The notes under the pieces: generated by a model
Database searches by the model: none
Told to the model about the DNA's origin: nothing
What the model saw: only the letters and a program-made list of their open reading frames with translations
IMG/VR virus record: IMGVR_UViG_3300027797_000016
Span: 41,060-105,059 of that record
Reading direction: 5' to 3' (one strand)
DNA length: 64,000 nt
From: a virus
Shown here: piece after piece, positions 7,489-55,470 of the stretch
How positions within the stretch are numbered: position 1 is the stretch's first letter
Layout: every line of letters begins with the position of its first letter
Program-made: the position numbers and the translations under genes

Positions 7489-7646
7489 TTCTGGTTCTCC
7501 TGAAGTTCAAGTTCTTCAATCATACTTTCACTCCAAGTAATACCATCAAAATCTTCAGGACATCCCATCCAATTCCTTGCTTCTTCTTCGGTTTCAAAAT
7601 CAAGAAACCCAATATTGGTTTCAACAATTTTTACTGTGTAAGTCAT
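7485..7646 (-). CDS. Hypothetical protein (start revised to MTYTVKIV)
   Basis: First gene after promoter copy 3. Confidence 0.8.
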   Translation of the reverse strand: MTYTVKIVETNIGFLDFETEEEARNWMGCPEDFDGITWSESMIEELELQENQK

Positions 7647-7725
7647 CAGGTCTTTGTGTATGAATGTATTATACGACAAAGGGCACTCGGTTTCAAGTGC
7701 CCTTGTGACGGTTTCTCAAGTGTCC
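7647..7725 (-). promoter_or_regulatory. PeSL-like early promoter module, copy 3
   Basis: GGACACTTGAGAAACCGTCACAA-GGGCAC TTGAAA CCGA GTGCCC; TTGAAA-17-TATAAT. Confidence 0.9.
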
Positions 7726-7916
7726 TCCAGTTCATCAAGTTCATCGGCAATCTCAAGAATATCCTTTGATTTTACCATATAAGTTCCATCTTCCCAACTC
7801 TCATAATCACTTACAATCTCACGAAGAACATTAATAAGAGAAGATATCTCATTCCTTTTTGAGAACTTTGGTTCCCGTAAGAATGTTTCCAAGATTTTTT
7901 GTGCCCTTTTAGTCAT
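7716..7916 (-). CDS. MTERA-family small protein
   Basis: MTKRAQKI...LREIV...DILEIADEL. Confidence 0.8.
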   Translation of the reverse strand: MTKRAQKILETFLREPKFSKRNEISSLINVLREIVSDYESWEDGTYMVKSKDILEIADELDELEDT

Positions 7917-11153: not shown

Positions 11154-11335
11154 AGTTTTACGGGTTGTTGTAGGTCTTGTGTCCAAAGTTGTTTATATGT
11201 AATCCACCTTTCTACACCAGTTTCCTGTTGTGCCGTCCAGTGATTCCCATACTCATCAACCGCATCCAAATAATGAATACCTGTCTTGGGGCAGATTACT
11301 CTGGATACTTGTGTGAATTTTAGTCGTTCAGTCAT
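11150..11335 (-). CDS. Hypothetical protein
   Basis: ORF track. Confidence 0.8.
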   Translation of the reverse strand: MTERLKFTQVSRVICPKTGIHYLDAVDEYGNHWTAQQETGVERWITYKQLWTQDLQQPVKL

Positions 11336-11601
11336 AATTTTTCAAGTTCCATAATAACAGATTGAAGGTCTCTAACACCTATAACCCAGTCATCCTCTAC
11401 ATCATCTTCAATCTCATATACATTCTTGAATTGATTGATGAGTTCTTTGAGTAATTCGGCAACAGATTTATTATATTGAGAACATTCATATGCAATACCG
11501 TAAATATAAGTATCTCTTCCGGTTTCTGGATGATTATAATTCTCTGGATGGTTCGGGTTGTGAAGATAAATCGCACCCGTTAGTTTTTCAGTTTCAATCA
11601 T
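11332..11601 (-). CDS. Hypothetical protein; C-terminus resembles the MTERA family
   Basis: ORF track. Confidence 0.8.
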   Translation of the reverse strand: MIETEKLTGAIYLHNPNHPENYNHPETGRDTYIYGIAYECSQYNKSVAELLKELINQFKNVYEIEDDVEDDWVIGVRDLQSVIMELEKL

Positions 11602-11610
11602 TTTAGTTCC

Positions 11611-11778
11611 TCAAATATAAGTATTACAAAAACTACGATGTCCTTTTACCCATTCAACTGCCTTTTCAATATTCCCATCACACATATAAAGACCTTTCAA
11701 ACACTCCAAATACCCAGCACCAGTTTTTTCACGAACTTCTGGAACTAACTTTTTATAATATTGTATTTTTTCAGTCAT
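11611..11778 (-). CDS. 55-aa protein resembling the EF-Ts N-terminal (UBA-like) domain
   Basis: [55 protein letters not shown]; matches the EF-Ts pattern [20 protein letters not shown]...GD.EKA.EWL; ATGA-coupled. Confidence 0.75.
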
Positions 11779-12032
11779 TCCCCCCACCCCTCAAAGTATT
11801 CCGCAAAAAATGCAAATCCTAACCCGAATTTATATTGTTGCATATTTACACTAAAAAGAGAAGAACCGAAGAAAGAAAGCAAGATGTTAAACCCCCCAGA
11901 AGAATGAACTATACCACCAGGAGTATCATAATACACCCAAAGAAATGAACGATTTTTGAGAATACCAAACTGCCAAGTGTGGGAGGTTTCACCATTATCC
12001 CAAACTTTTTTATCGTGCTGGAAGAGTTTCAT
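11775..12032 (-). CDS. Hypothetical beta-rich protein (family with 13531 and 13996)
   Basis: Start revised to MKLFQH after promoter copy 6. Confidence 0.8.
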
Positions 12033-12110
12033 CAGGTCTTTGTGTATGAGGTCATTATACGACAAGGGCACTCGGTTTCAAGTGCCCTTGTTCCAGTTTC
12101 TCAAGTGTCC
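12033..12110 (-). promoter_or_regulatory. PeSL-like early promoter module, copy 6
   Basis: Near-identical to copy 3; TTGAAA-16-TATAAT. Confidence 0.85.
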
Positions 12111-12129: not shown

Positions 12130-13053
12130 TTATACAACACTATTAATCCAGTTACGATCTGGTTGTAAACTCTCTTGATTTCTCAGCATAGTGCCCTTAA
12201 ATCCATCCATCACCCAAACACTTCTACCATCATCCCAAGCATTTTGTAATCCAGCAACATTAGACCACAAAGGCCAAGCATGATCGGTATCAAGTATTTG
12301 TGGTCCTTTAAATCCAGATAGTTTTGTTGGACCAGATGGAGCAATCCAATCAGCATCAATATTAGTTAACCAATCTTGTGTCCTACCCTTTGATGGTTTC
12401 ATTCCAGTAGCATAAGATGCTCCAACTGGTTTATCAGTATAACCTTTCACCCACTCAATCACTTTACCCTGAAACCATTTTACAGATTCACGATTTAACT
12501 CATTACCAACTTCATATATCACATTATCATACTTTTCAAGTCGTGATGTAACCTCTTTTACATGAGCACGTTGATACTTATTCCACGGACCTCTACTATG
12601 AACTTGTGAAGGATCTTTTGGTCCATTTTTTATACCATTAAAGGGATGTAACCTCCAAGAATCACCACCCTTTGGAAAATATGGAACAATAGCACCCTCA
12701 AACAAACAAACACCCACAGTAATACCAAGTTCATCTGCTGCTTTGACTGCTCTCTCCAGAGCATCATAGTATCCACGATTTAACCTCCCACTTTTATCTT
12801 TTCTCCACGGCACATCATCAATCTTCACAACTCCTGGTGTATTACTTCCCCAAGGAGAAGCAGCAAAGTTTGCTCCTCCTGTCTCTATAGTCCACAGACG
12901 AGTAAAGTTTCCAGTAATCTTATTCATACCAATAAGTTCACCATTTATAGCCTGAACCGTATTCCAAGTATGATTACCTGCCAATTGTTCTTTCTTTCCG
13001 TCAATATAAAAGTTATTACGTTTAATTGTAATCCCAGTTATATTGTCTTCCAT
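12130..13053 (-). CDS. Putative clan GH-A (GH5/DUF4038-like) TIM-barrel glycoside hydrolase
   Basis: AVKAADELGITVGVCLF and NVIYEVGNE motifs; late-promoter-like ATAAATA at about 13078-13084. Confidence 0.6.
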   Translation of the reverse strand: MEDNITGITIKRNNFYIDGKKEQLAGNHTWNTVQAINGELIGMNKITGNFTRLWTIETGGANFAASPWGSNTPGVVKIDDVPWRKDKSGRLNRGYYDALERAVKAADELGITVGVCLFEGAIVPYFPKGGDSWRLHPFNGIKNGPKDPSQVHSRGPWNKYQRAHVKEVTSRLEKYDNVIYEVGNELNRESVKWFQGKVIEWVKGYTDKPVGASYATGMKPSKGRTQDWLTNIDADWIAPSGPTKLSGFKGPQILDTDHAWPLWSNVAGLQNAWDDGRSVWVMDGFKGTMLRNQESLQPDRNWINSVV

Positions 13054-45216: not shown

Positions 45217-45288
45217 AGCCCCCGATCTGATTTGAACAGACGGCCGACGGTTTACAAAACCGTTGCTCTACCACTGAGCTACAAGGGC
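45217..45288 (-). tRNA. trnT: tRNA-Thr(UGU), no encoded CCA
   Basis: GCCCTTGTAGCTCAGTGGTAGAGCA-ACGGT-TTTGTAA-ACCGT...GTTCAAATC...GGGGGCT cloverleaf. Confidence 0.95.
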
Positions 45289-45297
45289 AACAAAAGA

Positions 45298-45326
45298 ATT
45301 ATAGATTATTTAGAGCATTTTGTCAA
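45298..45326 (-). promoter_or_regulatory. Sigma70 promoter for tRNA-Thr
   Basis: Perfect TTGACA-17-TATAAT. Confidence 0.9.
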
Positions 45327-54081: not shown

Positions 54082-55470
54082 TTATAATGGTTTTGGAGAC
54101 CCCATTCTTCCTGTGGAGTCTCTACATAAAGTTAATTTGGTATAACCACCAGAACGTAAACTGATATAATGACATAACTTTGCAATTACATAAAACCCTC
54201 CAAATTGTTTGTCCATAATTTTTGTATCTTTTGTAGAAGTTTCTGGGGCATCAACAAAAATATAATCGCCTGCGTGTAAACTAAAATCTCCTGTGATTGT
54301 AATTTCAACTTTTGTTGAGAAGAATTGATTATATCTCATTACAGATTGATTGAGAATATTTTTGGGATCAAAGTTTTTTGTTGTAGAATTATCAATTTGT
54401 TGTTGAGTATTTCCGTCTGGTAATGTTCCCGTATCAATTAGCATATATTGAGTTCTTGAGTAGTCTTGATTAGCACCCTCTTGATTAAATTCTTTGTTAT
54501 ATTTTGGTAGGTTTTTTCCTGCTTTTTGAAGTTTACTTTCTGCACCTTTTCCCCCTCCCAAAACATTTGGTGTTATAACTTCATAGTAACAATTAAAAGG
54601 ATCAAACATAATTGTTCTTGTTGAATATGTTCCAATTTGAAGTTTTGATTGGACACTTCCACTAGGAGTCACAACATTATATTCTAATATTTTTCCTCCA
54701 TATTCGGGAGGAACACTTGAACCTCTTCCATCAGGAGTTTCATTATAAACTAAACTCTTATACTTTTTTGGACCACCACCAGGTTCATTTTTTGAAAGTA
54801 ACCCCTCCACAGATTTAAATTTATATCCATCAGAAGTTTCATAAAAAAAGAAACCTGCAGTATTACCTAAAGCATTTGAACCATTAGGGCCTGAAATTTG
54901 AGGTACTGCTTTTCTTGCAAGTTGTAAAATAGTAGCAAATGGTCTCATATTGTTTCCAATATGATTTAAATTGTTAGATGTTTGCTCAATATCTAATTTT
55001 TTCTTTTCATCAACTTTTAATGTGTCTTCTAATATTGTTTTAATGCTATCTGATATTCTTCCCTTCAATCTATAATTTACTGTGGTTTTGTAATTCATAA
55101 TTGATTCTTTAGATCCAAGAGTTACAGAGACTAAAGATTTTCTGTTTTCTTTTGCTACTGGTGTTATTGCATCAGTATATAAGGTAACTTTTATTTCTTC
55201 ATCATTTGGATCTGTAAGTATTAAATCAACCTTTTCAGTTCCAACCATTTGCAAAGCATCTACCGCATTTTTAAACTCACCACCTTTTTGTACTGTACCC
55301 GTATCCCCAAAAAGAATATCAACTTTTAGAGTTGGGCTTAAAAGATCTTCAAAGTAATACAAATCAGTAATCAAAACTCCAATGTCGGATTTTGTTGCTC
55401 CATCATTAGAATGCACCAGACATTTTTTAATATCAAACTCTTTAGCTTGTGCTGCTGTGATTGCGGACAT
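54082..55470 (-). CDS. Probable baseplate hub (gp27-like)
   Basis: YFED.LSP, GFFFYET.DGY.FKS, GDFSL.AGD, G.Y.I..L.H motifs; adjacent to gp5. Confidence 0.6.
   Translation of the reverse strand: MSAITAAQAKEFDIKKCLVHSNDGATKSDIGVLITDLYYFEDLLSPTLKVDILFGDTGTVQKGGEFKNAVDALQMVGTEKVDLILTDPNDEEIKVTLYTDAITPVAKENRKSLVSVTLGSKESIMNYKTTVNYRLKGRISDSIKTILEDTLKVDEKKKLDIEQTSNNLNHIGNNMRPFATILQLARKAVPQISGPNGSNALGNTAGFFFYETSDGYKFKSVEGLLSKNEPGGGPKKYKSLVYNETPDGRGSSVPPEYGGKILEYNVVTPSGSVQSKLQIGTYSTRTIMFDPFNCYYEVITPNVLGGGKGAESKLQKAGKNLPKYNKEFNQEGANQDYSRTQYMLIDTGTLPDGNTQQQIDNSTTKNFDPKNILNQSVMRYNQFFSTKVEITITGDFSLHAGDYIFVDAPETSTKDTKIMDKQFGGFYVIAKLCHYISLRSGGYTKLTLCRDSTGRMGSPKPL

Follow-up and report, generated by a model that had tools for sequence, protein, structure and literature searches.

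An uncultured T4-like cyanophage carries, as a real protein-coding accessory gene, a frame of 55 codons whose product, judged by its homology, is a stand-alone TS-N domain (the N-terminal, UBA-like domain of elongation factor EF-Ts) and not an EF-Ts. The gene lies on the minus strand at positions 11611–11778, stop codon included, of the window, by which we mean the whole 64,000-nucleotide stretch analysed. It belongs, on comparison with metagenomic relatives, to an unannotated family of viral proteins of 50–65 residues that end in a new, aromatic C-terminal tail.

The minus-strand frame from 11778 to 11611 is intact, and its translation gives the protein that an earlier note, made from the sequence alone, had quoted for this interval; at 55 residues it falls below the usual ORF cut-off of 60. 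Its ATG overlaps the TGA stop codon of the upstream gene (ATGA), as expected from the translational coupling that the same note had claimed. A longer version from a GTG at 11787 is unlikely, and we take the ATG at 11778 as the true start because all homologues open with this same Met, preceded by DNA that is unrelated. The codons used are A+T-rich, in the manner of phages and not of the host. The upstream gene (11775–12032, minus strand), the first in the transcription unit, encodes 85 residues; its start was placed at the ATG behind a repeated leader, and the same leader and ATG recur in a second copy of the cassette described below (near 7640). The downstream gene (11332–11601, minus strand) encodes 89 residues, has no family match and does not represent an EF-Ts core; of the loci fetched, L006 alone has a homologue (97% amino acid identity). 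Directly after the TS-N stop codon stands the junction GGAACTAAAATG (11599–11610, minus strand), which combines a ribosome-binding site with the next start and is kept in this place in nearly every related locus, whichever gene comes next. The junction word GGAACTRAAATG, with one mismatch allowed, turns up 10 times in the window against 1.45 expected; these sites lie between 1916 and 11610 on the minus strand and also at 55231 and 56141, mostly between small genes. Many genes at these sites begin with ATGACT.

Upstream of the transcription unit we found a sigma-70-like promoter, TTGAAA-16-TATAAT (12081–12054, minus strand), which matches the consensus at 11 of 12 positions and is the best in the 5.5 kb scanned. 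Its –35 hexamer sits in the loop of a 13-bp, G+C-rich hairpin (12062–12091, minus strand; z –5.55 for a stretch of 101 nt). Hairpin, TATAAT, leader and ATG together form a cassette of about 85 nt that occurs in two near-identical copies, at approximately 12030–12110 and 7640–7726 on the minus strand. The TS-N gene, which lies in a hyperplastic region of small genes, is hence the second gene after a promoter and hairpin cassette; the earlier note had placed it second after an early promoter, of which the position stands with respect to TTGAAA-16-TATAAT, while 'early' is read from the promoter type alone. Composite cassettes of this kind, termed PeSLs (promoter-early stem-loops), are known from the hyperplastic regions of T4-like phages (PMC2839356, PMC4122927), and the unit described here matches that description: as in the T4-like PeSLs, a hairpin is joined to a sigma-70-like promoter, and the composite is repeated in a region of small genes and lies beside variable genes. 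The sequence of the window cassette is unrelated to that of coliphage PeSLs, however, and the mobile block described below has its breakpoints at the start of the TS-N frame itself and at the standard gene junction rather than at a PeSL. Just upstream of the promoter cassette lies an ORF of 307 residues (12130–13053, minus strand) without a PHROG match. Elsewhere in the window, a single tRNA-Thr gene (anticodon TGT; 45217–45288, minus strand) adjoins a perfect match to TTGACA-17-TATAAT at 45298–45326.

The source is a 105-kb IMG/VR virus record with an estimated completeness of 42%. Between 17 and 63 kb the window carries T4-like baseplate, tail and fibre genes, among which the baseplate hub has its nearest counterparts in the Synechococcus phages Bellamy and S-SM2 (37–40% identity). 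The records matched by the hub are mostly named as Synechococcus phage (329 of 449), with 61 named Cyanophage and 22 Prochlorococcus phage; nucleotide similarity is limited to a stretch of 425 bp that matches the freshwater phage S-SRM01. The host is probably a cyanobacterium, since the structural genes resemble those of Synechococcus phages. Neither psbA nor an EF-Tu gene was found in the record or in the related loci L002 and L003, all of which are fragments.

The likeness of the protein to the N-terminal domain of EF-Ts, which the earlier note had seen by eye, was recovered by sequence and profile searches. When phmmer was run against all PDB sequences, residues 10–44 aligned to residues 6–40 of E. 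coli EF-Ts (1efu_B, E 1.1e-4) with 17 of 35 positions identical and, as had been claimed, without a gap; the top seven matches are all EF-Ts. The NCBIfam model TIGR00116 (tsf) matches residues 10–45 at model positions 7–42 with E 4.2e-6 and a score of 26.2 bits, under its curated cut-off of 104 bits. Pfam EF-Ts_N (PF25025) matches with E 5.7e-4 and 20.2 bits against a gathering score of 33.2, and the Pfam matches to EF-Ts_N, UBA_7 and UBA (E 6e-4 to 4e-3) each lie below the gathering score; a homologue, P0009, has a precomputed PF25025 match. An hhalign comparison of a profile of 11 phage homologues with one of 26 full-length EF-Ts gave a probability of 99.0 and E 2.9e-18 over 39 columns (residues 9–47) at 51% identity, so that the match is far beyond chance. 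Searches of the HMM and HHpred type, which the earlier note had proposed as a check, thus return significant EF-Ts matches. Furthermore, a profile of the metagenome homologues run against 1.84 billion representatives matched 1320 proteins at E ≤1e-3; the best 150 of these are mostly EF-Ts N-termini and include several long proteins in which two stretches match; these are apparently EF-Ts polyproteins of the plastid type. The best EF-Ts N-domains share 20–23 of 36 residues with the phage protein and look to be drawn from different lineages, pointing to no single donor.

The AlphaFold2 model of the protein (pLDDT 83.8) is a compact bundle of three helices (residues 3–19, 23–32 and 37–46), predicted to share the fold of the EF-Ts N-terminal domain (E. 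coli EF-Ts residues 1–54; PDB 1EFU and 4PC1; Pfam PF25025/PF00627; TIGR00116). It superposes on the N-domains of EF-Tu:EF-Ts crystal structures within 0.8–1.2 Å over 34–39 residues. VIA-align Z scores are 6–7 for EF-Ts N-domains and other UBA domains alike and do not separate the two; the TS-N assignment therefore rests on sequence. Over the core, identity is 49% to E. coli EF-Ts and up to 64% (23/36) to some bacterial EF-Ts, and the phage protein has in common with them the contact Arg, a T-G-A-G loop, a Cys in helix 2 and the Ala/Trp pattern of helix 3. It differs in ending at residue 55, without the EF-Ts core, its TDFV wedge or the domain-III contact; in being encoded by a viral, mobile and fast-changing gene; and in what follows helix 3, which is an aromatic tail here and a Lys/Ala-rich linker in EF-Ts. 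The core was rightly called missing by the earlier note: the downstream ORF has no Pfam match, and no match to the core family PF00889 occurs anywhere in the 105-kb record. With homology to the N-domain and no core beside the gene or elsewhere in the record, the protein is better described as a TS-N domain than as an EF-Ts.

The structure of the M. tuberculosis (Mtb) EF-Tu:EF-Ts complex defines two conserved contacts made by the N-domain, Arg13 in helix 1 and Lys24 in helix 2; Arg13 bonds EF-Tu P114 and E155, and its mutation altered the gel-filtration behaviour of the complex, while Lys24 forms salt bridges to EF-Tu D144 and D145 (PMC9529903). These residues are R12 and K23 in E. coli and, by the phmmer alignment, R16 and L27 in the window protein. 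R16 is invariant in 19 of 19 family members, and the T-G-A-G loop nearly so. The contact Lys, in contrast, is invariant in 26 aligned EF-Ts and is replaced by Leu or Met throughout the clade of the window protein, where the residue that follows it has also changed, from Ala to Gly. Through these replacements the face of helix 2 that is turned to EF-Tu in EF-Ts (residues 23, 24, 27 and 31) has become more hydrophobic in this clade. Several other stand-alone subfamilies have Lys or Arg at the K23 position.

Metagenomes contain ten homologous clusters of 52–61 residues and 73–91% identity, of which four are named 'translation elongation factor EF-Ts' by JGI. In the window protein the tail occupies about nine residues (47–55), and the family pattern runs from the Trp of helix 3 through a basic residue and, in most cases, His or Asn to an aromatic or hydrophobic stretch that usually ends in Tyr-Ile or Tyr-Val. 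The domain and the tail are both retained in more distant stand-alone relatives, at 35–62% identity. Several similar-looking clusters of proteins of about 49–55 residues, with 55–96 members, are present in the ESM Atlas, two of them recorded as viral, one mostly bacterial and two without recorded taxa. The clade of the window protein occurs in no cultured cyanophage by tblastn, and patterns for the core clade gave no confirmed relative, and no prophage copy, in 185,579 genomes of bacteria and archaea; when two more distant subfamilies were scanned for with single proteins, one returned nothing and the other one locus.

Eighteen related loci were fetched for comparison with the window gene. The TS-N frame is intact in them, save for two truncations of the tail and one locus whose sequence breaks off within the gene. 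The two truncated copies (L011 732–887 and L013 1579–1734) are three residues short after an apparent one-base slip in a run of T, either through faulty assembly or because they are genuinely truncated. The genes beside the TS-N gene vary from locus to locus. The TS-N ORF stands out as an island of 87–99% nucleotide identity, with pS (synonymous divergence) of 0.00–0.20, between flanks that are either unrelated or made up of genes saturated at synonymous positions. Measured against the window, identity is 0.79–1.00 across the ORF and drops to 0.2–0.4 within 30 nt on either side; the limits of the conserved block are exactly those of the ORF with its junction. Neighbouring genes that the more distant loci share with the window have 32–65% protein identity and a saturated pS of 0.4–0.8, whereas the TS-N gene of the same pairs has 90–96% DNA identity and a pS of 0.01–0.08; in three near relatives (L004–L006) the neighbours are about as conserved as the TS-N gene. 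The island is not an artefact of how the loci were picked, since the search used degenerate peptide patterns. The simplest reading of these alignments is that a mobile TS-N cassette, bounded by standard gene junctions, has spread in recent time among phages that had long since diverged in their backbones.

For codons 1–50 of the island, counting by parsimony gave 11.5 synonymous and 38.5 non-synonymous events. The resulting omega, 0.79, is not distinguishable from 1 (p 0.37) and exceeds 0.3 (p 0.003), and so does not establish positive selection. Codons 11–20 show no change at all, and fast change falls on about 15 codons, with replacements concentrated at codons 24, 25, 27, 31 and 34 and in the tail; those that distinguish two haplotype groups lie on the side presumed to bind (residues 24, 27 and 31). 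This pattern is compatible with diversifying selection on a putative binding face without proving it. Over deeper time, the sequences show selection at the protein level, in the intact frames of the 18 loci and in relatives at 35–62% identity that keep domain and tail.

What the protein does can be proposed from these observations. We consider the case evenly balanced that it docks on helix D of EF-Tu and acts there as a non-catalytic ligand. Helix D is a documented contact for both EF-Ts and L7/L12 (PMC9825190, PMC5574714), and a stand-alone domain in which the Arg and the T-G-A-G loop are kept would most plausibly dock there as well. Its target would be the EF-Tu G domain of the host, at the place that the EF-Ts N-domain and L7/L12 occupy. 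Having no core wedge (TDFV motif, Asp80/Phe81), it would not catalyse the release of GDP in the manner of EF-Ts, which is why we favour a non-catalytic role. It could compete with EF-Ts and L7/L12 for access to EF-Tu, or modulate that access, or alternatively it could cover helix D against effectors directed at EF-Tu; the presence of EF-Ts in the reaction largely prevents modification of EF-Tu by an ADP-ribosyl toxin modelled to dock on helix D (PMC9825190). The binding energy lost with the core would be supplied by the remodelled hydrophobic face of helix 2 and by the tail. The C-terminal domain of L7/L12, which likewise binds helix D (PMC9825190, PMC5574714), has another overall fold and is ribosomal, and offers an analogy for the binding site only. 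One family member has a weak match to the Pfam L12 model (E 0.002). According to Wieden et al. (2001), the L7/L12 C-terminal domain and TS-N reportedly have in common a helix-turn-helix motif of the form R-x-x-T-G-x-G...K.

The EF-Tu reading is favoured by a homology that appears specific to TS-N and does not extend merely to generic UBA folds, and by the recent spread of the cassette, the pattern expected of a beneficial accessory gene. Against it stands the loss of a contact Lys that no aligned EF-Ts lacks, and an isolated N-domain has only part of the EF-Ts interface, so its affinity could be low. EF-Tu is also extremely abundant, which makes stoichiometric action by a small early protein demanding. 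Helix D is highly conserved, and the presumed binding face (residues 24, 27 and 31) is variable, which would fit a variable target better.

It is accordingly possible, if somewhat less probable than binding to EF-Tu, that the domain derives from EF-Ts and has been re-targeted to another early protein of the phage or to a host protein other than EF-Tu. The binding surface of such a module would be the variable and hydrophobic side of helix 2 together with the aromatic tail, which is conserved. The substitution of the otherwise invariant Lys and the adjoining Ala would be explained, as would a new tail that is conserved across subfamilies at 35–62% identity and the clustering of replacements on one helical face and in the tail at an omega of about 0.8; TS-N-like repeats are moreover found in architectures other than EF-Ts, in three to five tandem copies and fused to a BspA-type leucine-rich repeat region. 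Re-targeting fits less well with the retention of the EF-Ts-specific Arg and the T-G-A-G loop in a protein whose best matches are EF-Ts and not other UBA families, with the Lys kept in other stand-alone subfamilies, and with neighbourhoods in which no conserved gene points to a phage partner.

That the gene is a functionless leftover from the 5' end of a captured host tsf, carried along in a hyperplastic region, is very improbable. An omega near 1 among close relatives and the variable neighbours are what it would predict, but the frame has survived in the 18 loci with the exceptions given above, ten successive codons (11–20) are free of change, distant relatives retain domain and tail, codon use is not that of a host, and, the near relatives L004–L006 apart, the TS-N gene is far better conserved than every gene beside it. 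Conservation of the nucleotides as an RNA or DNA element, instead of or besides the protein, deserves hardly any credence and was set aside, for although pS is far lower in the ORF than in the flanking genes of the more distant pairs and 30 nt do not vary among the loci compared, the mRNA is no more structured than shuffled controls (z +1.4), the region matches nothing credible in Rfam (the sole one with E up to 1 is located downstream of the frame), the conserved block is exactly the ORF and its junction, and the protein homology is highly significant.

To return to EF-Tu as the target, this protein is a recurrent battleground between phages and bacteria, as seen in its cleavage by Lit and by type IV Thoeris, in Avs7 scaffolding, in toxins docking on helix D and in Qbeta replicase (PMC12803255, PMC9825190). 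A more speculative and rather unlikely extension is that the sweeping cassette encodes a decoy of helix D, which blocks a defence directed at EF-Tu or retunes the access of EF-Ts and L7/L12, and whose face is under the diversifying selection of an arms race. The defence so blocked could be a protease, an ADP-ribosyltransferase or a sensor scaffolded on EF-Tu, and the hydrophobic face and aromatic tail would have to give a domain of 55 residues enough affinity. Were this true, the protein would be the first case of a virus mimicking the exchange domain of a translation factor. More generally, widespread and unannotated viral mini-proteins that consist of the EF-Tu-gripping domain of EF-Ts alone would provide a simple new handle on the EF-Tu interface, and the idea of an EF-Tu ligand is directly testable with a 55-residue peptide. 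The identity island is in its own right a clean natural example of the exchange of a single-gene cassette at standardised junctions, in phage genomes that are otherwise saturated.

The searchable literature yielded no paper on phage-encoded stand-alone EF-Ts N-domains, and no experimental characterisation of the other TS-N-like proteins, stand-alone or repeated, that phages and metagenomes contain. These have 51–113 residues, consist of the TS-N domain only and often have the tail pattern in common with the window protein; most of them keep the contact Lys, unlike the clade of the window protein, whose own contribution is the lost Lys, the tail signature and the pattern of a cassette sweep. 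Pseudomonas phage Y1 (L022, OQ572403, flagged UNVERIFIED) was discarded as a viral example, as it carries a full-length, host-type tsf of 299 residues in G+C-rich DNA that is probably of host origin. The cultured Ralstonia phage RSP15 (Ackermannviridae) has an unannotated ORF of 70 residues, apparently a stand-alone EF-Ts N-domain with the contact Lys kept, between ORF136 and the SSB gene and just upstream of the latter (NC_030948 110782–110994; L021 1147–1359). Four metagenomic proteins (P0029, P0069, P0030 and P0049) contain two to five tandem TS-N-like repeats; in one of them five such repeats are fused to a BspA-type leucine-rich repeat region, and in another three stand behind an unknown domain of 200 residues.
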